Part shown: one piece after another, positions 26,132 to 57,494 of the stretch | How positions within the stretch are numbered: the stretch's first letter is position 1 | Layout of the letters: each line of letters starts with the position of its first letter | DNA from: Escherichia coli | Lineage (GTDB): Bacteria; Pseudomonadota; Gammaproteobacteria; Enterobacterales; Enterobacteriaceae | Assembly (NCBI RefSeq): GCF_003334405.1 | Contig: NZ_QOWM01000008.1 | Direction: 5' to 3' (one strand) | Length of the DNA stretch: 64,000 nucleotides | Notes under the pieces: model-generated | Told to the model about the DNA's origin: nothing | Databases searched by the model: none | Seen by the model: only the letters and a program-made list of their open reading frames with translations | Position numbers and translations under genes: made by a program

Positions 26132-27082
26132 TTAATCGTCTTCTTCGTCATCCAGTTCAACGGGTGTCTGATACTGGTCAGGTTTAATGACCAGCAGGTC
26201 GCAGCGAAGATGATCAATCACCTGTTCCGCCGTGTTGCCGAGGAATGCTGCTGAAATACCGGTGCGTCCTACCGTGCCCAGAACCACAATCCCCGCCTGT
26301 AAGTGCTCCGCCAAATCAGGAATCACCTCTTCTGGCAGACCTTTTTCTACGTGCGTCATGTTTTCATTAATGCCGAATTTCTGCCGCAGGGCTTTCATTG
26401 CCAGCAAATGTTGCCCACGAATGGCATCGTTATAAACGCTCGGGTCAAATTCCGGCAGTTCAATCGCGATATTAATTGGCGTTACCGGATAAGCGCCAAC
26501 CAGATGAACTTCGGTATGGTTGACTTGTTCTGCCAGTTCGATCGTCTCTTTGACCAGTTTTTCATTGAGCGCATTATGATACGGCTCTTCACTGGCGAGA
26601 TTCACCGCCACCAGCGCCTTGCCTCCTTCCGGCCACGGCTGGTCTTTCACCATCCACACCGGGCTTGGGCATTTGCGTAACAGATGCCAGTCCGTTGGCG
26701 TAAAAATCACCGCTTCCAGACGGTCATGTTGGTGCGCCATTTTTAGCACCAAATCGTGTCCGCCGCTGATCACTTCCTGAATGATGGCTTCGAAAGGACG
26801 GTTATGCCAGACCACTTTAATTTCAATGGGAACGCCAGCATTGAGATAATATTTTGCCTGCTCGTGGATCCAGGCTGTACGCTGGCTGATGACGCCCTGA
26901 CGCATAGCGGTACGTTCGTCCGGGGAGAGCAGGGTGGTCATTTCGTATGAGAAGTCATAGATCGGCAAAAAGGCTTTAATTTTGCCACCAATCCGTTGAT
27001 GTAAATAAACAGCTCGCCGCAATGCTGGTTGGTCGTCCTGGTTAGGATCGATAACAACGAGCATGTTCTGATACATAGCCAT
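26132..27082 (-). CDS. uspE: Tandem-domain universal stress protein E
   Basis: ORF 26132-27109; start placed at [12 protein letters not shown]. Confidence 0.85.
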
Positions 27083-27233
27083 ACAGGGTCTCCTTACAAC
27101 AACTGTCAACGCAGTTTGTAATTAAAAGATTAACCCATATCTGGTGAATGAAACAGTGATGAACCTTCTGCCAGATCAATAAATCAGAAAAATTTAATGA
27201 TATGACAGAAGGATAGTGAGTTATGCGGAAAAA

Positions 27234-27986
27234 TCAGGCAACGTTACGCGTATGACCAGCAAGCTGGGCCAGCGCATCGTTATTTTCGATGGTGATGTAT
27301 TTACCTTTGACTGCCAGCATGCCGCTTTTCTGGAAGCGACCCAGCAGACGGCTGATGGTTTCTACCGTCAGGCCCAGATAGTTACCGATATCGCCACGAG
27401 TCATCGTCAGGCGGAATTCACGAGGGGAGAAGCCGCGTTGGGCAAAACGACGGGACAGGTTGTAGATGAATGCAGCCAGACGTTCCTCGGCATTTTTCTT
27501 CGACAACAGCAGGATCATGTCCTGATCGCCTTTGATTTCACCGCTCATCAGACGCATCATCTGCTGACGCAGATTCGGCATTTTACCGGACAAATCGTCC
27601 AGCGTTTCGAACGGGATTTCACATACCATCGAGGTTTCCAGCGCCTGCGCGAAGCTCGGGTGATGGCCGCTGCCGATGGCGTCAAATCCCACCAGGTCGC
27701 CTGCTAAATGGAAACCAGTGATTTGCTCGTCGCCTTGCTCAGTGATGGTATAACTTTTAATCGTACCGGAGCGGATGGCATAAAGCGATTTAAGTTCATC
27801 ACCAGCCTTAAACAGCGTCTGGCCTTTCTGAATAGGCTTCTTCCGCTCAATGATATTATCAAGCTGATCAAGCTCATGTTCGTTGAGTGTGAACGGGATG
27901 CAAAGCTGGCTGATGCTGCAATCCTGGCAATGGATAGCACAACCGCCAGACTGAATGCGCCGTATAATTCGCTTTTCCGGGATCAT
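27234..27986 (-). CDS. fnr: Anaerobic global regulator FNR (CRP family, Fe-S cluster)
   Basis: ORF 27234-28043; start placed at [23 protein letters not shown] with the N-terminal Cys cluster. Confidence 0.9.
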
Positions 27987-28180
27987 AGGTCTGCTCAAGC
28001 CGTAATTGATATTTGTCAATTTTAACATCTTTTTAGGGAGCAAGTAAGTCTAAGCAAACCTTAACAGCAGAGAATTCCGATATTAGATGTAAATATATGT
28101 CTATCTATTTGAAAACCCTTAAGTTGTTAAGGGTAACTTTACATAAAAGTGTGAACAAGCTGGCACAAATTGTTTAATGT

Positions 28181-28696
28181 TTACAGCAAAAGATAACCTT
28201 CATGGCGCAATAACCACTCTTTTCGCTGAACTCCGCCTGCATATCCGGTCATGGTGCCGTTTCGGCCAATAACCCGATGGCAAGGTACGACGATGCTGAT
28301 GGGATTCGATCCGTTTGCCGCACCAACGGCACGCGCCGCGCCAGGACGGCCCAATTGCTCAGCCAGTTGGCCGTAATGCATTACCTGCCCGCAGGGGATA
28401 GTGCGTAGTGTTTTCCAGACTTCGCGCTGAAATGGCGTCCCCCCCGTAGCAGTGGGAAGCGTATCAATAATGCTAAGATTACCGGCAAAATATTCACGAA
28501 GCTTGTCGCTTAAACCGCCTGGATTGGTGGCAGAAATGCGCTCATAGCCTTCTTTGCGATAATGGATGTCCAGCAGCTGCACCATGCGTTCGCTGTACTC
28601 TTCCCATTCAACCGCCCGCAGGCGAAATTGCTCATCGCAAATCACCCACAGTGGACCCAGTGGCGTGGCAATTTTTTCTTCAAGTAATCTCAGCAT
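28181..28696 (-). CDS. ogt: O6-alkylguanine-DNA alkyltransferase
   Basis: 171-aa ORF with active-site PCHRV motif. Confidence 0.9.
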
Positions 28697-28706
28697 CCGT
28701 TCTCTC

Positions 28707-30233
28707 TTAAGACAAACGTGGGTAAATACCCGGACCTATCGGCAGACCGACAAGATACCACGCCAGCAACATCAGCAGCCATACCACCAAAAAGATAAGT
28801 GGATAGGGCAAGACTAACGAATAGTAAGTACCCAGTTTCGCGTCTGGTTTGTAGCGTTGCAGGAATCCAAGAAACAGTGGAACAAAAGGAGATACCGGCG
28901 CTAAAGGCAATACGGATGAGTCGGCAATACGAAAGAGGATTTGCGCAAATGCCGGGTGAAAGCCAAGTAGCATAAACATTGGTACGAAAATGGGGGCAAG
29001 AATCGACCAGATTGCGGAACCGCTGGCAATAAACATGCATAAGAAAGAGGAAAGCAACGCCAGACCGACAAACGCCGGGATGCCGCTAAGCCCTGAACTT
29101 TCCAGTATATCGGTCAGCCCCACGGCGATGAATTTCCCCATGTTGCTCCAGTTAAACATGGCGACAAATTGGGCGAGGGGAAAAACCATCACGATAAATC
29201 CCGCCATCTCTTTCATCGGTTCAATCATTAAATGCGGTAAATCCGCCTGACGTCGAATTGTGCGGGTAGCGATGCCATAAGCCAGCGAGACAACAAAGAA
29301 AAAAAGAATGATCAGTGGCACGATACCTTTAATAAAGGGTGATGGCATCACGGTGTGATTAATCGGATCGCGCAATATCCCGTTTTGCGGGATCACCATC
29401 AGCGCAATCGCAGCAATAAAAAGTAGCGATACGACACCTGCTATGCGTAAACCAAAACGCTGACTTTCGGTCAATGTCTGCAGTTTCTCATCGCTGTTTC
29501 CCTGCCATTGACCTAACCGTGGCTCGATGATTTTGTCGGTTATCAGGCCGCCAACAATCGTCAGTACGACTACGGAGCTGGCCATAAAATACCAGTTATC
29601 AATTACACTGACGTGCATTTGCGGATTGAACGCAGCTGCCGCTTCCGTGCTGATCCCCGACAGCAACACGTCGGTTGTGACAATCAGTAAATTAGCCGTA
29701 AAGCCGCAACCTACGCCTGCAATGGCAGCCAGTAAACCTGCAACTGGATGCCTGCCCACCGCCAGAAAAATCAGCGCACCCATCGGTGGCATGATCACTA
29801 ACGCCGCATCGGAAGAAATGTGGCTGAAAAAAGCAATAAACAGCACCATATAACTTGCGTAGCGGGCATTAACATGCGATGCCATTTTAACCATTAGTGC
29901 TGGCAGTAAGCCGACGCGCTCCGCCAGACCGGCACCTAAAACCAGCGCCAGGATCGCACCAAGTGGAGCAAAACCGCTAAAGTTTTTAATAACATTGGGT
30001 AAAAACCAGTGTAATCCTTCCACACTGAGCAGGTTTTTCACCACGACCGGCGTACCATCGGTCGGGTTTTTCGCACTGACGCCAAAGGCCGACAAAATTG
30101 CCGTCGTCACCATGAGTACGATAATCAAATAGATAAAGAGCAGAAAAGGATGGGGAACCTTGTTACCAATTCTTTCGACCCAGCCATAGAGCTTCCCGGA
30201 TTGGGAGGACGACGGTATGGATGACATACTCAT
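28707..30233 (-). CDS. abgT: p-Aminobenzoyl-glutamate transporter
   Basis: ORF 28707-30239; polytopic membrane protein; start placed at MSMSSIPS. Confidence 0.85.
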
Positions 30234-30269
30234 GGGCATTCCTCGGTTGTTGTGTTTGCGTTGTTGTTG

Positions 30270-31715
30270 TTATTTTAAAGGTGACGGTGTCACGTTTTTC
30301 GGGATAGGGCAGTGATACGGTTGCGTGTCCGTTACTTGCTGATGCTCTTGTTGGCATTCTTGCAATAGCCCTGAATCAAGGAAGAGATTGACTGTGGTTG
30401 CTGCCATAGTTTTCGCCGCCAGCAGCATTCCTTTATGAGCAATAGATGTTCGCCCCTGGCTAACCAGTTGCCACGTATGTAGCGGTGTACCGACGGCAAA
30501 ACAGGGGCTGAAACACTGGGCAACAGGCAGTTTCCAACTGACGTCGCCGACATCAGTCGATGCCGCAAGCACGTTATCGGTGGCGGCATATGGAGCGACT
30601 TCATTCGCCAGTACCGTTTCACGATGACGTAGTGCAAAAACCTTGCCGTTTTCGCCACCGGTTGCGGCGATATTATTCAGACTGTTTTGCCGATCGTTGG
30701 AGGTGAGCGTAGCCTGAATTTGTTTCGCAAAAGCCAGTTCTTCGGAGTTCCATTCCGGGGTACCAAAATGGGATAGGGCCTGGTACATGGCATTTTCTAA
30801 GGTGCGATTCGGGAGATAACTGGAACAGGCTTTGTCGAAGCGGCATTCAACCGTGGTTTCGGTCATCAATGCCGCACCTTCGGCGATTTTGGCGACCCGA
30901 TCATAAATATGCTGCACGTCGGTCATTTCGGGGGCGCGGATAAGATAAAGCACTTCTGCCTGCGCCTGGACCACGTTGGGCGAGATCCCGCCGCTATTTG
31001 TGATGGCATAGTGTACGCGCGCTTTTTCAATAATATGTTCGTTGAGGAAGTTGGTGCCAGTGGTCATCAACGTTACGGCATCAAGGGCGCTGCGTCCCAA
31101 ATGAGGGGAATTCGCGGCATGTGCTGCGATCCCTTTAAAGCGCCATGATGCCTGAATGTTTGCCAGCGTGCGGGTATTGAACATACCGGCAAAGGCTTCC
31201 GGGTGCCAGGTGAGTGCCGCATCCACATCATCAAATACCCCCTCGCGAACCATGAACGTTTTACCCGAGCCGCCTTCTTCGCCAGGACAACCATAAAAGC
31301 GCACCGTGCCGCCTTGCCCATATTGTTCCAGCCATTTCTTGACGGCTATTGCAGCGGCAAAGGCGGCGGTTCCCAGCAAATTGTGTCCGCAACCGTGACC
31401 ATTTTCACCGGGCGTCACGGATGTAGGTTGCGCGCAACCTGCTTGCTGACTTAAACCTGCCAGGGCGTCATATTCTCCCAGCAGGGCGATAACCGGTTTG
31501 CCTTGACCAAACGAAGCAATAAAGGCATTTGGGATATTGCCTACGTTGCGGGTAACGGTGAAGCCTGCAGATTCCAGCGCCGAAGCCAGATGCTCCGCTG
31601 ACCAGAACTCTTCAAAACGTGTTTCTGGATGATCCCAGATTTGATCGGCAATATCGGTATAACGTTGGCGATCGGCTTCAATCGCATCGTCGATAAAACG
31701 ATAGATTTCCTGCAT
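30270..31715 (-). CDS. abgB: p-Aminobenzoyl-glutamate hydrolase subunit B (M20 peptidase)
   Basis: 481-aa ORF. Confidence 0.85.
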   Translation of the reverse strand: MQEIYRFIDDAIEADRQRYTDIADQIWDHPETRFEEFWSAEHLASALESAGFTVTRNVGNIPNAFIASFGQGKPVIALLGEYDALAGLSQQAGCAQPTSVTPGENGHGCGHNLLGTAAFAAAIAVKKWLEQYGQGGTVRFYGCPGEEGGSGKTFMVREGVFDDVDAALTWHPEAFAGMFNTRTLANIQASWRFKGIAAHAANSPHLGRSALDAVTLMTTGTNFLNEHIIEKARVHYAITNSGGISPNVVQAQAEVLYLIRAPEMTDVQHIYDRVAKIAEGAALMTETTVECRFDKACSSYLPNRTLENAMYQALSHFGTPEWNSEELAFAKQIQATLTSNDRQNSLNNIAATGGENGKVFALRHRETVLANEVAPYAATDNVLAASTDVGDVSWKLPVAQCFSPCFAVGTPLHTWQLVSQGRTSIAHKGMLLAAKTMAATTVNLFLDSGLLQECQQEHQQVTDTQPYHCPIPKNVTPSPLK

Positions 31716-33025
31716 CAGATACCTCGCGTCCAGGGAAAATTGAGCGCGGTGCGCGCCAGCGTTTCGACGGCAATAGCGAGAACCTGCTCGTCAAAATCGA
31801 ATTTTTCGTTGTGATGACCTGCCGCCAGCTGTGTGCCAAACACCACGTAGGAGGCTTGCCCTTGATGTTGCTGCACGCGGGCCATCATTAATGTGGCATC
31901 TTCGGAACCCGCAGGCGCTTCAACACGTTCAATGGCCTGATTGACCCCCGCGACCTGAGCCGCCTGACTTTGCAACCATGCGACCCATTGCGGCGAAGGA
32001 GAACTGGCGGTAGCTGCACCCATCAGACGAGTTTCAACGCCGACACCATACATGGTTGCTGCGCCCTGAATCGCTTGTTGTGCACGGTCAAAAACATATT
32101 GATTAATGACGTCGCTGGCCCCGCGTGTTTCCACTTTCAGCAACGCCGAGGCAGGAACAACGTTACGACCGCTTCCTGCCTGCATAACGCCCACGTTTAC
32201 TCTGGAAGCTCCTTCGCTGTGCGGGGCGATTGCATGCAGTGCAAGAGTGGCTTGTGCTGCCGCCAACAAGGCATTGTGACCGTCTTCTGGTTTTGCGCCT
32301 GCGTGAGCGGCGGTACCGGTGAAGTGCGCGTCAAATTTGGTGGTTGCCATAAAATTATCACTGCCGCACACCACGGTGCCCGCAGGTACGCCAGTGCCAA
32401 TGTGCACGGCAGTAAAATAATCAACATCATCTACGACACCTGCATCGACCATCGCCCGCGCGCCACGCGTACCTTCCTCTGCAGGCTGAAAAATCAGTTT
32501 GATGACGCCATGTAGTCCGGACTCGAACTGTTTAAGGGTATGCGCCAGCCCAAGCCCAATGGCGGTATGTCCATCATGACCACAGGCATGCATCATTCCG
32601 GCGTTACATGACGCAAAACCGTCGCGGTAGGGGCGATGGCTGACATCCTGCTCTTCACTGAGATCCAGCGCGTCCGTATCGACACGGAAAGCCATCACCG
32701 GACCGGGGCGACCGGTATCCAGGGTGGCGACGATACCAGTGAAACCACCTTCAAAAGCCGCAATCCATTGTGCTAGCGCACCCTGTTGACGAGCGCGCTC
32801 GAATTCGCGTTGTAGAGTGAATTCATCAGGTAATCCCATCCGGCTACTTTCATTAACTACTTCGCGACCCAGCGCCAGTGAATAGCCGAGCTGGTGCAAT
32901 TCTTCCGCAACAAGGGTGGCAGTGCGGAATTCCACCCAGCCAGACTCTGCATAGTGATGAAAATCACGTCGCCAGTGCGATAATTTTGGGGCAAGCGAAT
33001 TAACAAATTGATTCAAAGACTCCAT
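31715..33025 (-). CDS. abgA: p-Aminobenzoyl-glutamate hydrolase subunit A (M20 peptidase)
   Basis: ORF 31715-33040; start placed at MESLNQFVNS. Confidence 0.85.
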   Translation of the reverse strand: MESLNQFVNSLAPKLSHWRRDFHHYAESGWVEFRTATLVAEELHQLGYSLALGREVVNESSRMGLPDEFTLQREFERARQQGALAQWIAAFEGGFTGIVATLDTGRPGPVMAFRVDTDALDLSEEQDVSHRPYRDGFASCNAGMMHACGHDGHTAIGLGLAHTLKQFESGLHGVIKLIFQPAEEGTRGARAMVDAGVVDDVDYFTAVHIGTGVPAGTVVCGSDNFMATTKFDAHFTGTAAHAGAKPEDGHNALLAAAQATLALHAIAPHSEGASRVNVGVMQAGSGRNVVPASALLKVETRGASDVINQYVFDRAQQAIQGAATMYGVGVETRLMGAATASSPSPQWVAWLQSQAAQVAGVNQAIERVEAPAGSEDATLMMARVQQHQGQASYVVFGTQLAAGHHNEKFDFDEQVLAIAVETLARTALNFPWTRGI

Positions 33026-33200
33026 AACCTTTCCCGTCATCAGTAAAAAGTGTGACCCGGTTCACGTAGCGATAGTTTTTACTTATCACTAACTGATTTT
33101 TCACAGTTTTAACCGTTCATAAATTACCCTGACACAATCATCTGCATTAAAGTAGATGCCAGTTTCTTTGGTCTGATAAATAACGGTTATCGGTGGCGTC

Positions 33201-34109
33201 ATGGCTTTTCAGGTAAAAATTCATCAAATTCGGGCTTTTGTTGAAGTGGCTCGTCAGGGCAGCATTCGCGGAGCGAGCCGAATGTTGAATATGTCGCAAC
33301 CGGCACTGAGTAAATCTATTCAGGAGCTAGAAGAAGGGTTAGCGGCGCAACTCTTTTTTCGCCGTAGTAAAGGCGTGACGTTAACTGATGCCGGTGAAAG
33401 TTTTTATCAGCACGCCAGTCTAATTCTTGAAGAGCTGCGCGCAGCCCAAGAGGATATTCGCCAACGACAAGGGCAACTGGCAGGGCAGATTAATATCGGC
33501 ATGGGGGCCAGTATTTCCCGCAGTCTGATGCCAGCTGTCATATCTCGTTTTCATCAGCAGCATCCGCAGGTAAAAGTACGCATTATGGAAGGGCAACTGG
33601 TGTCGATGATTAATGAATTGCGTCAGGGAGAATTGGATTTCACCATCAATACCTATTATCAGGGACCGTACGACCACGAATTTACTTTTGAGAAATTACT
33701 GGAAAAGCAATTCGCGATCTTTTGCCGCCCGGGACACCCCGCCATTGGTGCCCGTTCGATCAAACAGTTACTGGATTACAGCTGGACAATGCCGACGCCA
33801 CACGGCAGCTACTACAAACAGTTGAGTGAATTGCTTGACGATCAGGCGCAAACGCCACAGGTCGGTGTAGTCTGCGAGACGTTCTCAGCCTGTATCAGTC
33901 TGGTGGCAAAAAGCGATTTTCTCAGCATACTGCCTGAAGAAATGGGCTGCGATCCCTTGCACGGACAGGGGCTGGTGATGTTGCCGGTTAGCGAAATTTT
34001 ACCGAAAGCGGCCTATTATTTGATTCAGCGGCGTGATAGTCGCCAGACACCACTGACCGCGTCATTAATCACGCAATTCCGGCGAGAATGCGGCTATCTG
34101 CAAAGTTAA
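33201..34109 (+). CDS. abgR: LysR-family regulator of the abg operon
   Basis: 302-aa ORF with LysR HTH, divergent from abgA. Confidence 0.85.
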   Translation: MAFQVKIHQIRAFVEVARQGSIRGASRMLNMSQPALSKSIQELEEGLAAQLFFRRSKGVTLTDAGESFYQHASLILEELRAAQEDIRQRQGQLAGQINIGMGASISRSLMPAVISRFHQQHPQVKVRIMEGQLVSMINELRQGELDFTINTYYQGPYDHEFTFEKLLEKQFAIFCRPGHPAIGARSIKQLLDYSWTMPTPHGSYYKQLSELLDDQAQTPQVGVVCETFSACISLVAKSDFLSILPEEMGCDPLHGQGLVMLPVSEILPKAAYYLIQRRDSRQTPLTASLITQFRRECGYLQS

Positions 34110-34111
34110 AA

Positions 34112-34211
34112 CTGCATAAAAAAATAGAGTCTGTCGACATCCGCCAGACTCTACAGTACACACAGCAGTGCATCCGCGTCTTAAATCCGGCATTGTCTCC
34201 TCTGCGCCGGT
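34112..34211 (-). ncRNA. mcaS: McaS (IsrA) small regulatory RNA
   Basis: Minus strand reads ACCGGCGCAGAGGAGACAAUGCCGGAUUUAAGACGCGGAUGCACUGCUGUGUGUACUGUAGAGUCUGGCGGAUGUCGACAGACUCUAUUUUUUUAUGCAG, matching my recollection of McaS, with a terminal hairpin and U-run. Confidence 0.7.
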
Positions 34212-34438
34212 GACTGTGTTATAACGGTTTTAACCTTTAGTTGCCAATTTTCTTCAGTGACAGATTTCACGAAAATATAAGTTACATTATTAATATCGTG
34301 AATGAATAATCATGCATAAGTATTTTGCTTAAAATATCGGCAATATTTGGAACTTATTACTGGAAATTTGGGTAATACGTTGTTGGACCGACCCGGTCTG
34401 GTTATCATATCGCGCTCTTAATTGCGGGAGGATGTAAC

Positions 34439-35002
34439 ATGAACCTTGACGACAAATCGCTGTTTCTTGACGCCATGGAAGATGTCCAGCCGCTGAAACG
34501 TGCTACCGATGTCCACTGGCATCCAACGCGTAACCAACGTGCGCCGCAGCGTATCGACACGCTGCAGCTTGATAATTTCCTCACCACCGGATTTCTCGAC
34601 ATCATCCCACTAAGTCAGCCGCTGGAGTTTCGGCGGGAAGGGTTGCAACATGGGGTGCTGGATAAGCTGCGCAGTGGTAAATATCCGCAACAGGCGAGCC
34701 TGAATCTTTTGCGCCAGCCGGTGGAAGAGTGCCGCAAAATGGTGTTCAGTTTTATTCAACAAGCCCTGGCGGATGGTTTGCGTAACGTGCTGATTATTCA
34801 TGGTAAAGGGCGGGATGATAAATCGCATGCCAATATTGTCCGCAGCTATGTGGCGCGCTGGCTGACCGAATTTGATGATGTTCAGGCATATTGCACCGCG
34901 CTACCGCATCATGGCGGCAGCGGGGCGTGTTACGTCGCACTACGTAAAACGGCGCAGGCGAAGCAAGAAAACTGGGAGCGCCACGCTAAGCGCAGTCGTT
35001 GA
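34439..35002 (+). CDS. smrA: Smr-domain DNA endonuclease
   Basis: 187-aa ORF with C-terminal Smr-like region (LIIHGKG). Confidence 0.8.
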   Translation: MNLDDKSLFLDAMEDVQPLKRATDVHWHPTRNQRAPQRIDTLQLDNFLTTGFLDIIPLSQPLEFRREGLQHGVLDKLRSGKYPQQASLNLLRQPVEECRKMVFSFIQQALADGLRNVLIIHGKGRDDKSHANIVRSYVARWLTEFDDVQAYCTALPHHGGSGACYVALRKTAQAKQENWERHAKRSR

Positions 35003-35022
35003 TCTCGAGACGCATCCGCGGC

Positions 35023-36255
35023 TTATGCCGCCAGCACGCGGTTGCGTCCATCATTTTTCGCCCGATACAAAGCATCATCAACGCGTTTAAACAGTTCATC
35101 GATGCTTTCATTTCCTTCGTGATGCGCCACACCAATGCTGACGGTAAAGCGTGGTAAGCCCGAAATACTCACTTTTGCCACGCTTACGCGGATAGTTTCA
35201 GCCAGCGAAAGCGCGGTATCCAGTGGGGTTCTTGGTAGCAATAAGACAAACTCTTCGCCTCCCCAACGAAACACCAAATCGCCTTTGCGAGCGCAACTTT
35301 CGAGGGTGCGGGCGAGGGCGCATAACACCTCATCACCTTTAGAATGCCCATAGAGATCGTTAATGTGTTTAAAACGATCGGTGTCGATGAGCAACAAGCT
35401 GTAATCCTGAGCGATGGCGAGATGCTGCATTTGGCCTGGTTCCGTAATGTGATAAAACTGTCGCCGATTCAGTAATCCGGTCATCGCGTCATGGTGAGCA
35501 GCATGTTCCAGCTGCTCCTCCAGCCGTTTTTGCTCAGTAATATCATGCACAATACATAACATGAGCTTGTCGCCATAAATTTCAATCGGTCCGGCATAGG
35601 TCTGCACATGACGAGTCGAACCATCCGCCAGTTTATGAACAAAATTCAAAGGTTTATGACCACCGGGTAAATGCGAGATTTCATGCATGATAGGCATGAC
35701 GCGACGCCCGAGCATATTTATTTCCCAGGTATGTTTCTGGCACATCGTTTCATGGTTATAACCATAGAAATTGAGCGCGGCGAGGTTAGCATCGACGATT
35801 TGTCCATCTCGTGACGGGTCAATCAACAACATTGGTGCAGAGTTAGTCAGAAAAAAGCGCGCATAAAAACCTTGTTTTTTGCGCTGATAATTTGCCGAGC
35901 GACTGGCTTTTAAACCCAGCGTTGCCGGCGCTTCGATACCTTCGAAAATAATCACCGGTTCTGTTTCTGTCAGCTTTCGCAAAACAAGCCGACAGCTCAA
36001 TGCTGTTTCCTCTTCTTTACGCTGAACAGTGAGGATTTCGATAATATCGTGTTGGTTTTGCAGATCGGAGAGGTATTTCGGCAGTTCTTTTTGTGAGGAG
36101 ACGGAATAGGGTCCGGTTCGTAGCTGACTAAACGTGAGGTCTTGCATCAACAGTTTCGCCGCGCTATTGGCATAAATTAACTGTTCCTCAAAGGGCGAAA
36201 CGATCCAGACAGGACTGGTGAGTAAGTCCAGGGTATTGAAGTTGTGCGTAATCAT
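35023..36255 (-). CDS. dgcM: PAS-PAS-GGDEF diguanylate cyclase
   Basis: ORF 35023-36315; GGEEF motif present; start placed at MITHNFNTLDLL. Confidence 0.85.
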   Translation of the reverse strand: MITHNFNTLDLLTSPVWIVSPFEEQLIYANSAAKLLMQDLTFSQLRTGPYSVSSQKELPKYLSDLQNQHDIIEILTVQRKEEETALSCRLVLRKLTETEPVIIFEGIEAPATLGLKASRSANYQRKKQGFYARFFLTNSAPMLLIDPSRDGQIVDANLAALNFYGYNHETMCQKHTWEINMLGRRVMPIMHEISHLPGGHKPLNFVHKLADGSTRHVQTYAGPIEIYGDKLMLCIVHDITEQKRLEEQLEHAAHHDAMTGLLNRRQFYHITEPGQMQHLAIAQDYSLLLIDTDRFKHINDLYGHSKGDEVLCALARTLESCARKGDLVFRWGGEEFVLLLPRTPLDTALSLAETIRVSVAKVSISGLPRFTVSIGVAHHEGNESIDELFKRVDDALYRAKNDGRNRVLAA

Positions 36256-36488
36256 TGAGATCCCGTTATTTTTATCAATTTTTGTTGCTATCCGATCGCA
36301 AAAAAGCCACGTCATATGATCAGATAATTCTGATAATGATAGACGCTATTTAACACTTCACACGGTTTGTATACGGAAAAGCATTTTGCTTTTTGTATTC
36401 AATTTAGACAGAATTTTATTAATCATTTCAGGGTAATGGGGTGATGAGATGTTGCGTAACAGGGCCAGAAGGCTAGACTACAAAATAA

Positions 36489-37493
<1,005 letters not shown>

Positions 37494-37538
37494 CAAAAGC
37501 AATTTTTCCGGCTGTCTGTATACAAAAACGCCGCAAAG

Positions 37539-37552
37539 TTTGAGCGAAGTCA
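37539..37552 (+). promoter_or_regulatory. FNR box upstream of fnrS
   Basis: TTGAGcgaaGTCAA, close to the TTGAT-N4-ATCAA consensus, about 40 nt upstream of the proposed FnrS 5' end. Confidence 0.5.
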
Positions 37553-37588
37553 ATAAACTCTCTACCCATTCAGGGCAATATCTCTCTT

Positions 37589-37710
37589 GCAGGTGAATGC
37601 AACGTCAAGCGATGGGCGTTGCGCTCCATATTGTCTTACTTCCTTTTTTGAATTACTGCATAGCACAATTGATTCGTACGACGCCGACTTTGATGAGTCG
37701 GCTTTTTTTT
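37589..37710 (+). ncRNA. fnrS: FnrS small RNA
   Basis: Sequence from GCAGGUGAAUGCAACGUCAAGCGAUGGGCG to the terminator hairpin GCCGACUUUGAUGAGUCGGC plus U8, matching recalled FnrS. Confidence 0.75.
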
Positions 37711-37767
37711 GCCTGTTATTTATCAGCGTCTACCCTTTAAGAGTCCACCCAATGACCAGAGGGAAAT

Positions 37768-51110: not shown

Positions 51111-52039
51111 ATTTTTAATCCCCCATTACCACTATGTAACTCACTTAGTATATCATTCGCAATGATTTTAACAGTGTCATGAAGTGCTTTAAGATCGGGG
51201 ATTCCTGTAGATGCGTTTATGTTTAAGTCGTTATCATCTAATTCGGCAGAAATTCCTTTTCTTAAGATGGTGTCGTAATTAAAAATGACTGTTCTATTGC
51301 CTAATTGTAAACTAACTTTTATTGCGTCACACTTATCTTCAATTATTTCTATTATATTTCCTAGTTTTTTGTCTTTTAAGTCTTTAAAACTACCAAATAC
51401 GCCTTGATTTGCTTTTATTACCAAATCGGTTTTGATGTTTGTTTTGTTATTTCCGAATGAATCCGTGATGTCCTTTGGTGCTTTGTAACCTTGGGCTTTT
51501 ATTTGTTTTAATTCTGAATCAAGGATGTGTTGGGGGATTTTTTTGTGGCAAAGAGGATTGATTCTCGCTTCAAGTTTATATTTTGTTTTCAAGTGGTCTA
51601 GTAATGCATCAGAGAGTGTGCTGCGAGCAGAAATATTGTCATTAGCGTGAAATGCTATAATCCCTTCTTCTAAATTGTCTGGCAAAAATATTAAAATGTA
51701 ACGCTGTTTGAGAGTTACATCGTTGATAGTTGTTGTATAACGTATTTTAGTAAGTTTATCGTCTTTTATTTCACTGCTCTCACCATATTTCCCAACCTTT
51801 ACATATCCATATATTACTTGGTTTTGAGCATCAAAGGTGAGTGATGTGTGTTGTTCAAGAGAAACCTTTGTTTTCGAGAGACCAAATTCAATAGGTGTGT
51901 TTTTATAGCTATTAAAATACTCAACAAATAATTCATATGCTGTTTTTTTATCGCTTAAACCTAGGTTGTTTAGTCTTTTGCTGGTTCGGCTGCCCTTGTG
52001 GGTTAACACACGGAATGAATAGAAGTTAACGCTGTGCAT
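51107..52039 (-). CDS. Uncharacterised soluble Lys/Asn-rich protein (310 aa), upstream gene of the two-gene cassette
   Basis: No transmembrane segment or nucleotide-binding motif seen; AT-rich codon usage unlike flanking genes; coupled to the membrane gene. Confidence 0.55.
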   Translation of the reverse strand: MHSVNFYSFRVLTHKGSRTSKRLNNLGLSDKKTAYELFVEYFNSYKNTPIEFGLSKTKVSLEQHTSLTFDAQNQVIYGYVKVGKYGESSEIKDDKLTKIRYTTTINDVTLKQRYILIFLPDNLEEGIIAFHANDNISARSTLSDALLDHLKTKYKLEARINPLCHKKIPQHILDSELKQIKAQGYKAPKDITDSFGNNKTNIKTDLVIKANQGVFGSFKDLKDKKLGNIIEIIEDKCDAIKVSLQLGNRTVIFNYDTILRKGISAELDDNDLNINASTGIPDLKALHDTVKIIANDILSELHSGNGGLKI

Positions 52040-52406
52040 GAAAAGTCCTTTTGAACATATAGGAATATATTAGAGCATGAATGTGTGCAATGCATAAAAG
52101 AAAAAGCTACCGCAAGGCGACTCCACCCACAGATAGCTCTTAATTGATTGTTTGTAAAAAATAATACATTAATTATCTTCTGTGTAAAGAGGGAAACAGC
52201 CTTAGGGTAAGGGACACGAGTTGGGGGGATTGGTGAAATTTGCGTTGAGGATAAAACGATTTGCGGGAAAAGGATAGTTAAGTAGAATTGCTGCGGGTGC
52301 TTGAGGCTGTCTGCCTCGGGCATGAACACCAAAGGCAGATAGAGAAAAGCCCCAGTTAACATTACGCGTCCGGCAAGACGCTTAACATTAATCTGAGGCC
52401 ACATCT

Positions 52407-52655
52407 ATGCTTTGCATACGTAGATTAGCCTCTTACCGACCAAAAGGTCAAGGAGAAGCAGGCTATGAAGCAGCAAAAGGCGATGTTAATCACCCTGATC
52501 GTCATCTGTTTAACCGTTATAGTGACGGTACTGGTAACGAGGAAAGACCTCTGCGAGGTACGAATCCGAACCGACCAGACGGAGGTCGCTGTCTTCACAG
52601 CTTACGAACTTGGGGAGTAAGAGGACCAGCGGGGAGAAATCCCCGCAACCTCTGA
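52407..52655 (+). CDS. mok: mok-like overlapping reading frame (start uncertain)
   Basis: 82-codon ORF in another frame that fully overlaps hok, as in hok/mok/sok loci. Confidence 0.4.
   Translation: MLCIRRLASYRPKGQGEAGYEAAKGDVNHPDRHLFNRYSDGTGNEERPLRGTNPNRPDGGRCLHSLRTWGVRGPAGRNPRNL
52465..52620 (+). CDS. hok: Hok-family type I toxin (51 aa)
   Basis: Hand-translated MKQQKAMLITLIVICLTVIVTVLVTRKDLCEVRIRTDQTEVAVFTAYELGE, near-identical to recalled HokD/RelF; AAGGAG 9 nt upstream. Confidence 0.8.
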   Translation: MKQQKAMLITLIVICLTVIVTVLVTRKDLCEVRIRTDQTEVAVFTAYELGE

Positions 52656-53083
52656 TGTATTATGCATCCTCAACGCAGCCACAGTTAACCTGATTGGCGG
52701 GTTTATTTCATCTGTAAATATTTTTATAAAAATAATGCCCACGCACAGCATAAAACAAAAAGTATTACAGATAAAAAAGGAACGTAATGTGCAGATTTGT
52801 TGTTTTCCATATTTACTCACCTTAATATGATTAATCCTGATAGGGTTGTTATTTCAGCGGTTTTCAAATGAGATATTATGGTGATCTGACAAATTTGCAT
52901 AACATTAAAATTTAATTTGTTTAACCGCTTTTAATAATAAGCGTTGTTTGTATCCCAGCAATCTGTTGTTTGGTTTTTATTCCATTAAGGTGGGGGCTTT
53001 ACACTGGAACCAGTTTATTTATACTTTATACGTCAGCCTGAACAACTGGCATCTGCTGCACTGCGCCATCGAGAGATTGAGAA

Positions 53084-53683
53084 ATGGCGCATATACAACT
53101 GGTCAAACAAACTTCTTCTGGTTTACTTCTCCCGGCGACGCCGGAGAGTTGCGATTTTCTGCATCAAATCAAAATAGGTGAGTGGATACACGCAGACTTT
53201 AAGCGTGTGCGTAACTACGCATTCCACAAGCGTTTTTTCAAACTCCTGCAACTGGGATTCGATTACTGGACTCCGGTCGGTGGGGCGATCACGCCTCGCG
53301 AACGAGAACTGCTGTCTGGTTTCGTTGATTACCTGTGCGAATCAGTTGGTCGGGAACACACGCCAGCCCTGAGTGATGCCGCAGAGCAATACCTTAACAC
53401 CGTTGCGACTCGTAGAACCCGGGATACGGCGTTGCTAAAGTCGTTTGAGGCTTTCCGCGAGTGGGTAACCATTCAGGCCGGATTTTACACCGAGCATATT
53501 TATCCGGACGGTAGCCGTGGGCGTCGGGCAAAATCCATCGCTTTTGCGAATATGGACGAAGTCGAGTTTCAGCAGGTTTATAAATCTGTACTGAATGTGC
53601 TGTGGAACTGGATTCTGTTCCGTAAATTCTCCTCTCAGGAGGAAGTTGAAAATGTGGCCGCACAACTACTGGAGTTTGCGTAA
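53084..53683 (+). CDS. Lambdoid nin-region protein, possibly DUF1367-like
   Basis: 199-aa ORF directly upstream of and coupled to the next two late-regulatory genes; family assigned from memory only. Confidence 0.45.
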   Translation: MAHIQLVKQTSSGLLLPATPESCDFLHQIKIGEWIHADFKRVRNYAFHKRFFKLLQLGFDYWTPVGGAITPRERELLSGFVDYLCESVGREHTPALSDAAEQYLNTVATRRTRDTALLKSFEAFREWVTIQAGFYTEHIYPDGSRGRRAKSIAFANMDEVEFQQVYKSVLNVLWNWILFRKFSSQEEVENVAAQLLEFA

Positions 53684-53973
53684 TGGTGAATTTACGTAAA
53701 GCGGCTAAAGGCCAGATGTGCCAGATCAGAATCCCTGGCTACTACAATCACAATCCCGAAACCTCTGTGCTGGCGCATTACAGGCTGGCGGGGACGTGCG
53801 GAACAGCGACAAAACCACATGATATGCAGGCGGCGATAGCCTGTAGCTCATGCCACGATCTAATCGACGGGCGGGTAAAAACCAGCGATTACACCAAAGA
53901 AGAATTGCGCCTGATGCATGCTGAAGGGGTTTTTCGCACACAAGAAATCTGGAGAAAGAAAGGTCATTTATGA
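53683..53973 (+). CDS. Small Cys/His-rich nin-region protein (YbcO-like)
   Basis: 96-aa ORF with C...C...H...C..C.H spacing; ATGA overlap with the upstream gene. Confidence 0.45.
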   Translation: MVNLRKAAKGQMCQIRIPGYYNHNPETSVLAHYRLAGTCGTATKPHDMQAAIACSSCHDLIDGRVKTSDYTKEELRLMHAEGVFRTQEIWRKKGHL

Positions 53974-54512
53974 TTTACCCAACGAATACAGGAAAAAGCG
54001 GAGAACACCTTCGCCTCACCACGCTGGAAAGTGTCTGGATTCAGGGAAAACTACGTATGTGGGGGCGCTGGTCGTATATTGGCGGTGGCAGGTCAGGGAA
54101 TATGTTCAATCAGTTGTTGGCATCCAAAAAACTGACGAAAACAGCCATTAATGAAGCCCTGCGCAGAATGAAAAAAGCGGGAATAGAGAAAGCTGAGCTG
54201 GAAGCGTTTTTGCGAGAGATGATCAACGGCAAGCAAAAGAGCTGGCTGGCGCATTGTACTGATGCAGAGGCGTTATGTATTGATCGAGTCATAAGTGAGG
54301 TGCTGGCAGAGCATCCAGGATTGATTTGCATTCTCCGGCAACGCTATGAAGGGCGGGGGATGACTAAGCGCAAAATGGCTGAATTGCTAAATGATGCACA
54401 CCCAGAGTGGTGTTTTAGCACATGCGAAAAACGGATTGCTAATTGGTTAGCTGTTGCTGAGTATGCCCTACATATTCCCATGCGTGAATCATTTGCTGAG
54501 AAAATGGCTTGA
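53970..54512 (+). CDS. Late-gene antiterminator Q-like protein
   Basis: 180-aa ORF in the Q position (after nin genes, before terminators and the lysis cassette); assigned mainly by position. Confidence 0.55.
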   Translation: MIYPTNTGKSGEHLRLTTLESVWIQGKLRMWGRWSYIGGGRSGNMFNQLLASKKLTKTAINEALRRMKKAGIEKAELEAFLREMINGKQKSWLAHCTDAEALCIDRVISEVLAEHPGLICILRQRYEGRGMTKRKMAELLNDAHPEWCFSTCEKRIANWLAVAEYALHIPMRESFAEKMA

Positions 54513-54592
54513 TTTCTTACGTATAAACTGCTTCAATTTTGCTATGCTTCGCAAAGCTGTATCGCGAGGCGGATTGCAGACATGGACATCGT

Positions 54593-54619
54593 AAAAAAAC
54601 CGCTTAATGCGGTTTTTTT
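54593..54619. terminator. Intrinsic terminator downstream of Q (candidate tR')
   Basis: 11-bp perfect stem AAAAAAACCGC-ttaat-GCGGTTTTTTT. Confidence 0.55.
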
Positions 54620-54938
54620 ACGTCAGGAAAGCAGGGGAGAATGCTGCTAGTTGGGCAACTGGTCTTTCTGCTCCAAATTATAACAGAGACCAGTTATAGT
54701 TTCGGTGCTGTGTTTTTTTACAATATTGTGATAACACATTGCTGGCGGGAGTTTTGATATTTCTTGGCAGGGGCTGATGATGCGTTATCCTGATGTCGTC
54801 AACTCATATAAAATGAGATGAGAGATCATTGCAGGGTGGTTTGTAATTCGCTGTTTAGCGGGACAATATGTTGTCTGATACAAGACACCCGACGCCTCAG
54901 ATTACTATAATAAAGACGAAGCATCCTTTGTATTGACC

Positions 54939-54966
54939 AACCGCCTGTTTAGGCGGTTCTTTTTGG
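54939..54966 (+). terminator. Second intrinsic terminator in the Q-to-lysis spacer
   Basis: Hairpin CCGCCT-gttt-AGGCGG followed by TTCTTTTT. Confidence 0.5.
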
Positions 54967-55555
54967 GCTGGTTTATTGTATGCCAAATGATTATTAAAAA
55001 GGTTGTGTTAATAACAAAATCCGAAATAATATGCCTGCATATTTTTATCTTGCTTATATTCTGCATATTGTGCATAGCAGGCTCATCCCTGCAATCAAAA
55101 CTGTATGATGAGTATTTTTTGTTTTCCTTTTTTCCAGTCATCTGATGATGACCTGCTTCTTTTTAATCCGGATCGACATCAGTTTTTTAAGATAATTCCT
55201 GCGAGTTATATGCATAAATGCCACAAACTCCGCATTTTATGTGGTTGGGAGTTGCCGGGCGCGCAGTGAGTTTGCTAAGAAAACTCCTGCATGGTGAATC
55301 CCCCTGTGCGGTGGGGTGATACCATTAACCTTTTCTGTCGCCGACAGGTATCACGAACATTTTGTTCACCGGGAGGCACCCGGCACCATGTACTTCAATA
55401 GATTCTCTCCACATTATGGATATTCTTTCAGAATATCCCACGCAGACTTTGTGTAAATGTTAACAAATGTGCGTTTTATTTGATCTGATTCGCTGTTTGA
55501 GCGTCCAAAACAACGGTATATATAATCCTTTACTATATGACATATGTGAGGAAAA

Positions 55556-55984
55556 ATGGGTTTTCGTAGCGCATCAATTCTTACGTTGATTATTAGTGGG
55601 ATTATTATCGGGTGCACTGATGCTGTATCGACAAATTATCATGACCGTACATCATATTACTCCGATAAAGCAATAGAGACACAGTATGTGAGTTCATCTG
55701 AACGTACTTCTGATGTTAGTGAGGATATCCGTCTGTATGCCCATCAAATCAAGAGCGCCATCGAAAAACAGTTCGGGGATGCGAGTAAGTATTCAGGAAA
55801 AGAGTGTACACTGAGAATGCATATGGCCCCGAATGGCCTTCTACTGGAGGTTAAAAGAGAAAGTGGAGACCTCGATTTATGTCGTGAAGCGATGAATGCG
55901 ATAAAGAATGCTGATATACCTGCCCCCCCTTCGCCGGAAGTATATAAAGTATTTCAAAATGGGGTGCTGGATTTTAAACCCTGA
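55556..55984 (+). CDS. Lipoprotein with TolA C-terminal (domain III)-like fold, copy 1
   Basis: Signal peptide with lipobox IIGC; C-terminal QIKSAIEKQF...GKECTLRMHMAPNGLLLEV...LCREAMNAI...IPAPPSPEVYKVFQNGVLDFKP resembles recalled TolA domain III. Confidence 0.6.
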   Translation: MGFRSASILTLIISGIIIGCTDAVSTNYHDRTSYYSDKAIETQYVSSSERTSDVSEDIRLYAHQIKSAIEKQFGDASKYSGKECTLRMHMAPNGLLLEVKRESGDLDLCREAMNAIKNADIPAPPSPEVYKVFQNGVLDFKP

Positions 55985-56134
55985 TATTTATTGTTTTGTA
56001 ATAAACGGTTTCGGCTTAGGTTTGTTCTGACACAGCTACGGCACTGAGCTAAATTTAGCGGATAGTCAGCTCTGAGCCAGTGGCGGACGTAACAACTACT
56101 ATTGCTGAGATTTTAATGGATTGAGGAGCAAGAA

Positions 56135-56530
56135 GTGGGATTAAAGAAAATCGTTATGTTGACTTTTTGGGTCGGTTTTGTTGCGGGATGCACACCTTTA
56201 CACCCTTCAGATTGCCACAAAACTACTGCTACAGGTAGTTGCAGTTCAGGACGCTGGGATGATCAGGATGAATGGGGGGCGCAAGCGCGGGGAATCAGAG
56301 CTGCAATTAATGCCAAACTTGATGAGCCGCATAACTGGAAAGGGAAAAAATGCAGGTTGCATATGGAATTCTCTCAGGATGGCACGGCGTTAAAAATATC
56401 TACCAGTAACGGTGATAAAGCCTATTGCGAAGCGATAAAGTCCGCAGCTCATAAAGCCAAATTTCCGGCCTTCAACAATCCGGAAGTCTACAGAGATTTT
56501 CAGAAATCTGGCTTTGACATGCGAGGTTAG
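56135..56530 (+). CDS. Lipoprotein with TolA C-terminal-like domain, copy 2 (divergent paralogue)
   Basis: GTG start after GAGGAG; lipobox VAGC; KKCRLHMEFSQDGTALKI...YCEAIKSAAHKAKFPAFNNPEVYRDFQKSGFD parallels copy 1. Confidence 0.55.
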   Translation: MGLKKIVMLTFWVGFVAGCTPLHPSDCHKTTATGSCSSGRWDDQDEWGAQARGIRAAINAKLDEPHNWKGKKCRLHMEFSQDGTALKISTSNGDKAYCEAIKSAAHKAKFPAFNNPEVYRDFQKSGFDMRG

Positions 56531-56655
56531 CTCTTCAATTACTATATCTCATTCATAGCAAACTGACAGATTTGATGATGTTCTATATACGAAACCTGTG
56601 ATGTCAAGTCTGAGCTAATACAAATAAACATAATATCAGAGAAATACATTTTATT

Positions 56656-56679
56656 AGCTCGCTACGGCGAGCTTTTTAT
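56656..56679 (+). terminator. Intrinsic terminator after the lipoprotein pair
   Basis: Hairpin AGCTCGC-tacg-GCGAGCT followed by TTTTTAT. Confidence 0.5.
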
Positions 56680-56781
56680 ATTGCATCGTCTCCAGCATAT
56701 ATATCAATTAAGGCTCTGATTGATGTGTCTGAAAGCCTACACATAATAACTATGCCATCCGTTCCGTGCGGAGGTGAGGCT

Positions 56782-56997
56782 ATGAAATCCATGGACAAAA
56801 TTTCAACAGGCATTGCCTACGGCACCTCCGCAGGCAGTGCTGGCTACTGGTTTTTACAGTTGCTCGATAGAGTAACTCCGTCACAGTGGGCTGCAATCGG
56901 TGTGCTGGGTAGTCTGGTATTTGGCCTGCTGACGTACCTGACAAACCTTTATTTCAAGATTAAAGAAGATAAGCGCAAGGCTGCGAGAGGTGAATAA
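56782..56997 (+). CDS. Phage-21-type class II holin (pinholin)
   Basis: [31 protein letters not shown]...KAARGE closely matches recalled S21; dual-start MKSM; two transmembrane segments. Confidence 0.85.
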
Positions 56998-57494
56998 TGC
57001 CTCCATCATTACGAAAAGTCGTTGCTGCTGCTATTGGTGGCGGAGCAATTGCTATAGCATCAGTGTTAATCACTGGCCCAAGTGGTAACGATGGTCTGGA
57101 AGGTGTCAGCTACATACCATACAAAGATATTGTTGGTGTATGGACTGTATGTCACGGGCATACAGGAAAAGACATCATGCTCGGTAAAACGTATACCAAA
57201 GCAGAATGCAAAACACTCTTGAATAAAGACCTTGCCACGGTCGCCAGACAAATTAACCCGTACATCAAAGTCGATATACCGGAAACAACGCGCGGCGCTC
57301 TTTACTCATTCGTTTACAACGTGGGTGCTGGCAATTTCAGAACATCGACGCTTCTTCGCAAAATAAACCAGGGCGATATCAAAGGCGCATGTGATCAGCT
57401 ACGTCGCTGGACATATGCTGGCGGTAAGCAATGGAAAGGTCTCATGACTCGTCGTGAGATTGAGCGTGAAATCTGTTTGTGGGGTCAGCAATGA
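56997..57494 (+). CDS. SAR endolysin (lysozyme, phage-21 R type)
   Basis: N-terminal Gly/Ala-rich signal-anchor-release segment ([18 protein letters not shown]) plus lysozyme core; start overlaps holin stop (TAATG). Confidence 0.85.

Follow-up and report, generated by a model that had tools for sequence, protein, structure and literature searches.

A terminator-less STnc100-family RNA in the probable late leader of a lambdoid prophage from Escherichia coli

What does a lambdoid prophage keep between its antiterminator gene Q and its late genes where no gene is annotated? This question is raised by an interval of about 0.9 kilobases (positions 54630-55555) in a 64,000-nucleotide (nt) stretch of Escherichia coli DNA (contig NZ_QOWM01000008.1 of assembly GCF_003334405.1; hereafter the window). 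Upstream lies a plus-strand gene for a Q-like late-gene antiterminator of the DUF1133 type (53970-54512, 180 amino acids (aa); PHROG 753, 'anti-termination protein Q-like', E-value 3.3e-78), the product of which is named 'DUF1133 family protein' in the RefSeq record of an E. coli locus that shows 100% identity to the query (L001; hereafter the identical locus). Downstream, two lipoprotein genes precede holin and endolysin open reading frames (ORFs) that start at about 56725 on the same strand; their counterparts in the identical locus bear the names essD and rrrD. The interval is an ordinary regulatory leader with one well-supported element, a member of the known RNA family STnc100. More specifically, the Q-dependent late operon of a lambdoid prophage at the Rac locus probably has its untranslated leader here, assembled as a mosaic of three pieces. 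The family membership and fold of this RNA, the absence of its terminator, the mosaic joints and the lack of genes and transfer RNAs (tRNAs) are direct observations.

The placement of the prophage follows from its landmarks. In a whole-window Rfam scan, McaS (34116-34211), FnrS (37589-37706), RalA (42016-42194) and sok (52295-52470) all score above their gathering scores. McaS, FnrS, RalA and the sok/hok pair lie upstream of the interval, and trkG is found 3' of the lysis genes in the identical locus. Judged from these sequence markers, the prophage is a fairly complete lambdoid one located at the Rac locus.

An AT-rich block followed by a GC-richer one had been noted in the initial annotation of the interval, and this is reflected in GC fractions of 0.34-0.39 over 54875-55250 and 0.47-0.53 over 55175-55400. 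The GC-richer block is a member of the STnc100 family. The Rfam model RF02076 aligns over its entire length (model positions 1-206 of 206) to 55259-55445 on the plus strand, with 83.4 bits versus a gathering score of 47 and an E-value of 2.4e-17, and the match is also present in the gathering-threshold scan of the whole window. The structured core (55289-55391, plus strand), which is of a short 99-nt type, consists of a closing helix and the arms P2 (CCCC/GGGG), a long P3 (GUGAUACC/GGUAUCAC), P4 (GAACA/UGUUC) and P5 (CCGGG-AGGCA-CCCGG). Its minimum-energy fold coincides with the centroid at -43.6 kcal/mol (z-score -3.55), and no shuffled sequence folds as well. In P3, a change on both sides keeps the pair intact, with GTGATACC/GGTATCAC in the window and GTGATATC/GATATCAC at positions 7777-7879 of the viral contig L046 (C-G versus T-A). 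A name and boundaries are thereby given to a stretch that is blank in RefSeq, which matters little on its own.

The wider family was surveyed in viral contigs, which were scanned with the two conserved core ends as an exact pattern; this returned at least 120 stretches. At least 128 STnc100 copies with at least 30 distinct cores of 99-125 nt were obtained, the ends of which are invariant because the pattern fixed them and hence carry no covariation information, while the centre varies. Among the matches listed, the window represents a rare short core type, the conserved ends of its core are identical to those of the 30 distinct cores, and 102 of 111 non-redundant contexts have STnc100 in sense orientation relative to adjacent ORFs. 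The copies sit between Q and the lysis genes, beside accessory genes, and the window copy likewise lies in sense orientation between Q and the holin and endolysin ORFs, with all of these on the plus strand.

Among the small-RNA families of Rfam, STnc100 is one of the most abundant in bacterial genomes (PMC9029176). For E. coli O157:H7 EDL933, eleven copies are reported; RNA-seq reads cover most of them, and a Northern blot confirmed one (PMC5331693). The Hfq-bound EcOnc27/sRNA103 overlaps the copy that lies 3' of stx2B (PMC12711010). Enteropathogenic E. coli has PasD1 and PasD2, which are Hfq-dependent (PMC8550237) and reportedly related to STnc100 in structure (bioRxiv 10.64898/2026.05.13.724894), and binding of RpoD at STnc100 promoters has been shown in Salmonella LT2 (PMC10794520). 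The kind of element is already known, and its function is described only tentatively in these papers. Expression in the lysogen and association with Hfq are reported for other copies and relatives only (PMC5331693, PMC8550237, PMC12711010). Like STnc100 and the relatives PasD1/PasD2 and EcOnc27/sRNA103, the window copy combines a full-length Rfam match with a multi-helix core, and it shares with the family the conserved ends GCAUGGUGAAUCCCCCUGUGCGG.GGGG ... CACCGGGAGGCACCCGGCACCAUG as well as the sense orientation in the Q-to-lysis interval next to accessory genes. Unlike 115-116 of the 122 copies surveyed, it lacks a G+C-rich terminator with U-tail. Its upstream motif has diverged, and it is joined directly to a lipoprotein cassette. 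Its centre also differs from the common types, with a P3 that is nested and not able to pair with the P4 loop.

The absence of the terminator sets this copy apart. A terminator-like site is located within 130 nt of the core in 115 of the 122 STnc100 copies surveyed among the matches listed, at a distance of 20-29 nt in 103 copies and of 60-69 nt in 12. Seven copies were flagged as terminator-less; six of these, including the window, form a class linked to TolA-type genes, and the seventh (L050) does contain a long-loop terminator that was missed by the simple screen. The lipoprotein-cassette-linked class is the only one without a terminator. In the window, an AT-rich hairpin without U-run (GGAUAUUCU/AGAAUAUCC, 55418-55438, plus strand) occupies the place of the G+C-rich terminator of other copies, and the sequence runs on to the lipoprotein start codon at 55556. 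Upstream of the core, comparison of flanks and alignment locate a diverged version of the family motif (55245-55288, plus strand): TTGACW ... GAGTTTGTTAAAA is kept in the same register, as TTGGGA ... GAGTTTGCTAAGAAAA, with GAGTTTGCTAAGAAAA standing for GAGTTTGTTAAAAGAAA. The family motif is presumed to be a promoter. A sigma-70 reading of it was tried and rejected, as no register offers an acceptable -10 element and not even a canonical copy gives a hit in the scan. The canonical copy L006 is bracketed by terminators on both sides, which implies a promoter of its own. As read by eye, the canonical terminator stem CCCCUCUCCGGAGGGG is nearly the same as the P2 hairpin CCCCCUGUGCGGAGGGG, and the two could exchange partners (for example at L006 2427-2448).

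The 3' flank of the core reveals how this arrangement may have come about. Over 55392-55575, strains F9792 and STE15 and phage mEp460 match the window at 100% identity, but all three differ from it in a core centre of the 104-nt type, in the upstream flank and in a Q that is followed by tRNA genes or a DUF3927 ORF. The shared 3' side next to a different core centre, flank and Q places a mosaic joint inside the conserved 3' core end (55366-55391). This suggests, from sequence comparison, that the conserved STnc100 ends may serve as recombination points between prophages. Element ends that act as mosaic joints may in turn help to explain the movement of accessory cassettes among lambdoid prophages, including those next to stx.

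Beyond this joint, two lipoprotein genes follow in tandem (55556-55984 and 56135-56530, plus strand), each with a 3' part that encodes a TolA-like C-terminal domain (PHROG 5772, function unknown; TIGR02794, E-values 4.2e-21 and 1.8e-12). A sigma-70-like match (TTGAGC-N18-TATAAT, 55497-55526, plus strand) precedes the TGAGG Shine-Dalgarno sequence (55547-55551) of the first gene, and a terminator with T-run follows the second (56656-56673). With its own promoter-like site and terminator, the pair looks like an accessory cassette ahead of the holin. The stretch 55497-55526 is 100% identical in F9792, STE15 and mEp460, and its conservation is therefore uninformative on function. As a guess, the lipoproteins could be decoys against TolA-dependent colicins or filamentous phages. 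A terminator-less STnc100 subtype fused to lipoprotein genes raises the question of whether such RNAs work as mRNA leaders.

At the other end of the interval, a late promoter and qut site had been expected within it. The block that travels with Q instead lies upstream, at 54509-54628, which puts the late promoter/terminator unit of this DUF1133-type Q outside the flagged interval; from the earlier guess of promoter or small RNA (sRNA) content, the sRNA part stands with the STnc100 match above its gathering score, and the promoter and qut part was misplaced. The candidate late promoter pR' (54509-54548, plus strand) comprises TTGATT (54509-54514), which overlaps the Q stop codon, a 17-nt spacer and TTCAAT (54532-54537). 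Six bases further, a -10-like TATGCT (54543-54548) coincides with the predicted transcript start. Promoter function of TTGATT-N17-TTCAAT is putative. The ensuing short IsrK-like leader RNA (54546-54628, plus strand) would begin with a hairpin (GCUUCGC/GCGAGGC, 54546-54570) and end with the Q-proximal intrinsic terminator tR' (54590-54628, plus strand), which has perfect 14-nt arms (54590-54603 and 54609-54622) followed by a T-run just before the interval. The fold of the whole RNA has a z-score of -3.81.

Comparisons tie this unit to Q. In alignments, conservation of the promoter block beside DUF1133 Q genes extends from E. coli to Providencia and in part to Klebsiella, and tR' is kept at the same position in relatives with different but still complementary stems. 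In a blastn search of complete E. coli genomes, 54500-54672 matches only beside DUF1133 Q genes, at 74-93% identity. A post-terminator block (54629-54672, plus strand) is shared with other DUF1133-Q prophages at 74-77% identity, and homology ends near 54672. The mosaic comparisons show that the unit is inherited together with its Q allele. A phage record labelled with Actinobacillus pleuropneumoniae as host (PP818812.1) contains a version of this DUF1133 Q that is 88% identical in amino acids, along with a promoter block that is about 90% identical in DNA; this is an odd host for an E. coli-type module.

By its layout, the unit 54509-54628 would be of the pR'-qut-tR' or IsrK type, but by score it is not a member of isrK. 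In Gifsy-1, isrK directly follows antQ, and transcription that passes its terminator continues into the genes beyond (PMC4825925). The present locus resembles the Gifsy-1 antQ-isrK region of Salmonella (PMC4825925) in its succession of a Q-like gene, promoter, short RNA with 5' hairpin, Rho-independent terminator and predicted read-through into downstream genes, with the short terminated RNA (54546-54628) immediately 3' of the Q stop codon at 54512. It differs in that the Rfam isrK model (RF01394), which aligns end to end over 54546-54619, reaches only 21.6 bits (E-value 0.025 in a search of 771 nt) versus a gathering score of 50, and in that the orf45-anrP module is absent; homology is lost at about 54672, and no relic of the relatives' genes was found in place of orf45 and anrP. 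In other prophages with a DUF1133 Q, this place is taken by a 65-aa ORF and a gene for a helix-turn-helix protein, which may correspond to orf45 and anrP.

The pR' promoter of phage lambda has a promoter-proximal -10-like pause-inducing element and gives rise to the 6S RNA. As in the lambda pR'-qut-tR' arrangement, the promoter candidate directly adjoins the end of Q, the transcript start has a -10-like hexamer in the position of the pause element, a terminator follows about 80 nt downstream with a predicted short RNA in the absence of Q, and the unit is co-inherited with the Q allele. Unlike in lambda, Q belongs to the DUF1133 family, there is no sequence similarity to lambda pR', and pause, Q binding and start are predictions here.

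Between these two pieces lies an orphan middle of about 570 nt (54672-55240), which was found only in copies of at least 99% identity, namely in about 448 complete E. coli genomes by blastn and in 34 viral contigs. Blastn against phages returned no relatives of it, and a scan of IMG/VR with the second terminator as exact pattern yielded 34 contigs, all 99-100% identical over 54400-55700. Single-nucleotide differences within the lineage are too few to reveal constrained segments. Past the point that corresponds to about 54672, related DUF1133-Q prophages contain a 65-aa ORF together with a gene for either a helix-turn-helix protein or a DNA methyltransferase, and tRNA genes frequently come next. 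Relics of such genes were sought and rejected: tblastn with the 65-aa ORF, helix-turn-helix, DNA methyltransferase, TerB and DUF3927 proteins against 54600-55300 gave noise (best E-value 0.032 over 17 residues).

Two good intrinsic terminators had been reported after Q, and both are present, the first (tR') just before the interval and the second within its orphan middle. The latter (54939-54965, plus strand) reads AACCGCCT-GTTT-AGGCGGTT followed by CTTTTT and has an 8-base-pair (bp) stem with five G-C pairs. The raw number of terminators in the scan is at chance level (4 found versus 2.8 +/- 1.6 expected); the fold of 54915-54966 has a z-score of -2.99, and the hairpin was found only in 99-100% identical copies. 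Most likely it is a backstop for the late leader, or else the 3' end of an RNA of about 50 nt. The latter option, in which 54882-54965 would be an independent sRNA gene specific to this prophage lineage, is the best of the alternatives and still a doubtful one. A sigma-70-like match (AAGACA-N18-TATAAT, 54882-54911, plus strand) agrees with the consensus at 10 of 12 positions and lies about 25-30 nt upstream of this strong terminator, and the predicted RNA folds into a 5' hairpin, a single-stranded stretch and the terminator with U-tail. However, promoter-like matches occur at chance frequency, the spacer of 18 nt is longer than the usual 17, no Rfam match with an E-value below 1 was obtained, and no diverged relatives exist that would display conservation. 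A bare backstop terminator accounts equally well for the hairpin.

The remainder of the middle is plain. The AT-rich orphan spacer (54966-55240, no strand assigned) has a GC fraction of 0.34-0.36 and fold z-scores of +0.28 and +0.14. A search for hidden structured RNAs gave z-scores between -0.9 and +0.3 for 54629-54722, 54735-54880, 54967-55110, 55111-55258 and 55400-55540, and a dedicated Rfam scan of 54500-55270 yielded no match with an E-value below 1 inside the interval. A perfect 9-bp inverted repeat (AACTGGTCT/AGACCAGTT, 54657-54695, plus strand) was considered as a terminator and ruled out, as the T-run at 54712-54719 is about 17 nt away; the fold of 54629-54722, which includes it, has a z-score of -0.55.

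Taken together, the three pieces suggest the following course of events, in which all transcription starts, the action of Q and any regulatory activity of the window STnc100 copy are predictions. Without Q, the Q-cognate unit upstream of the interval (late promoter, transcript start and tR') would give rise to an IsrK-like RNA that is only about 75-80 nt long, whereas Q, if present, would load onto RNA polymerase at this unit. The second terminator (54939-54965) in the orphan middle would most likely serve as a backstop to keep the late genes silent in the lysogen, and the Q-modified polymerase would read through it. The GC-richer block would then contribute the STnc100-family structured RNA with intact core, whose own terminator was apparently swapped for the lipoprotein cassette at the recombination joint. 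Most likely, this RNA would be made as the 5' part of the lipoprotein mRNA or within the late transcript rather than as a free terminated sRNA.

Several points weigh against this model of a Q-dependent leader. The locus is known here from sequence and not from transcripts. The promoter-like sites are consensus matches at chance frequency, of which 11 were found compared with 7.5 +/- 2.8 expected in shuffled sequences. The orphan middle, with its second terminator, has no diverged relatives for comparison. In addition, the motif upstream of STnc100 cores does not read as a good sigma-70 promoter, and its TTGACW is degraded to TTGGGA in the window; the window copy scores 83 bits versus 120-172 in complete copies; and it is devoid of the terminator and U-tail that usually serve Hfq binding. 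The combination of low score, missing terminator and U-tail, and degraded motif implies that the window copy may be inactive.

Carried further, these last features could mean that the copy is a dead remnant, kept only because its conserved ends provide homology for recombination and no longer giving rise to a functional RNA. The position of the mosaic joint exactly in the conserved 3' end would fit such a scenario, and a preprint from the Storz laboratory describes a terminator-less variant of PasA as a possible pseudogene or ancestral sequence (10.64898/2026.05.13.724894). Yet, all five helices of the core are intact and its fold is a clear minimum, as described above. Moreover, the same terminator-less junction occurs with both 99-nt and 104-nt cores before an identical lipoprotein cassette, including the mEp460 record. 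A dead remnant is considered unlikely, and the structured leader segment described above is preferred.

Rather less probable still is a role in cis instead of as a trans-acting sRNA, for instance as a processing or stability element, as an insulator of cassettes, or as a leader that controls translation of the lipoproteins. The prevalent sense orientation to the operon in the surveyed contexts, the placement beside accessory genes in the Q-to-lysis interval, where a single late region can contain up to five copies, and the fusion of the window copy upstream of a gene would all be in line with it. The compact multi-helix fold with invariant loops and a likely pseudoknot in other subtypes was likewise judged unusual for a plain base-pairing sRNA. 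On the other hand, nearly all other copies have a terminator of their own and at least one of them (L006) another just upstream, which gives them the appearance of self-contained small genes; studies based on RIL-seq (RNA interaction by ligation and sequencing) and CLIP (crosslinking and immunoprecipitation) report Hfq-dependent trans interactions for relatives (PMC8550237, PMC12711010); and no cis activity has been reported for STnc100. To the same small degree, STnc100 might be more than a base-pairing sRNA, namely a compact structured module (a five-helix junction, which in most subtypes has an alternative pseudoknot of the P4 loop with the strand after P2) that acts in cis (in processing, as insulator or as leader) and, as DNA, forms a joint for cassette exchange. 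If so, the window would be an informative case, in which the terminator is lost and the module has become the leader of a lipoprotein cassette with TolA C-terminal domains. The multiplicity of copies is most evident on contig L046, which contains five STnc100 copies (120-172 bits) at 4984-5196 and 6956-7937, four of them in a head-to-tail arrangement that repeats about every 260 nt, ahead of a 654-aa gene and a holin.

The pseudoknot itself is a lead and not a finding. Both of the common core types allow a perfect pairing of 6-9 bp between the P4 loop and the strand that follows P2. It reads AUCAGCA/UGCUGAU in one type and CUGGUG/CACCAG or CACCGG in the other, and the adjoining position changes to match. 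A core's own partners pair over 6.9 bp on average, whereas partners swapped between the two types reach 4.4 bp and shuffled loops 4.1 bp. The structures from Rfam and RNAalifold are unable to show a pseudoknot, and RNAalifold pairs the strand after P2, less well, with the strand just 5' of P4. In the core type of the window, only this latter, nested form exists, as a perfect 8-bp helix. Effectively, only two or three independent changes underlie the P2-strand/P4-loop pairing in the common types.

A structured RNA in sense orientation to the transcript of a lambdoid phage operon is also reminiscent of putL and putR of phage HK022. These put RNAs differ in that they consist of two stem-loops and belong to early operons. 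An antiterminator RNA of the put type was rejected, as putL and putR read from HK022 bear no resemblance by eye to the STnc100 core, and an Rfam scan of HK022 positions 27000-38000 revealed no STnc100 match at E-values up to 5.

The lack of tRNA-like sequence noted in the initial annotation was confirmed by ARAGORN, which finds none in the whole window, and by the Rfam tRNA model, which has no match in 52000-58000 at E-values up to 1. A tRNA or tRNA relic within the STnc100 core can likewise be dismissed in view of these negative searches and of its architecture, in which a closing helix with four arms includes a P5 loop of 5 nt that is not a T-loop.

The absence of a convincing ORF was equally upheld by family searches, codon scores and annotation. 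The two longest ORFs in the interval are a minus-strand one of 78 aa (54905-55141) and a plus-strand one of 70 aa (54933-55145), which has its TTG start inside the terminator hairpin. None of the ORFs tested matches a PHROG and none of the larger ones an NCBIfam model (the 38-aa ORF mentioned below was not run against NCBIfam), and their codon scores fall within the spread of random small ORFs in the window. The RefSeq record of the identical locus lists no coding sequence between the DUF1133 Q gene and the first tolA-like gene, and in the best 25 rows of the E. coli search these two are the sole genes under the match. HKUOPY1, EC7 and KV7 are among the strains that agree with the window at 100% across 54500-55600. 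Some GenBank submitters annotate two overlapping ORFs on opposite strands of the AT-rich block as 'hypothetical protein'. These calls look spurious on sequence grounds, as both strands of one AT-rich stretch are called and no diverged relatives exist; in a search of 5.8 billion proteins, the relatives of the 70-aa product are all at least 96% identical.

That the interval nevertheless hides a small protein gene, either the 38-aa ORF at 54641-54757 or a hydrophobic ORF of 52 to 70 aa in the AT-rich block, is very unlikely: the 38-aa ORF has a codon score of +0.265 per codon, a purine-rich site ahead of its ATG and, by eye in the alignment, a frame over the conserved GTCTTTCTGCT block in common with an ATG-started ORF in three relatives, and the 70-aa ORF has been annotated by some submitters, but the family searches and the RefSeq record are negative as described, the codon scores of the small ORFs stay within about 1.7 standard deviations of random ones, the 38-aa frame is not kept in strain NWU_4, and the 70-aa ORF combines its TTG start in the terminator hairpin and near-identical relatives with an overlapping antisense ORF that is 'annotated' to the same extent. 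The product of the 38-aa ORF is hydrophobic, and the ORF lies directly 3' of tR', in the position of Gifsy-1 orf45, with a GGGGAG Shine-Dalgarno-like site before its ATG. A motif GCAGGGG-N-ATG that resembles this site was read by eye a second time at 54767-54783, ahead of an ORF of 14 codons.

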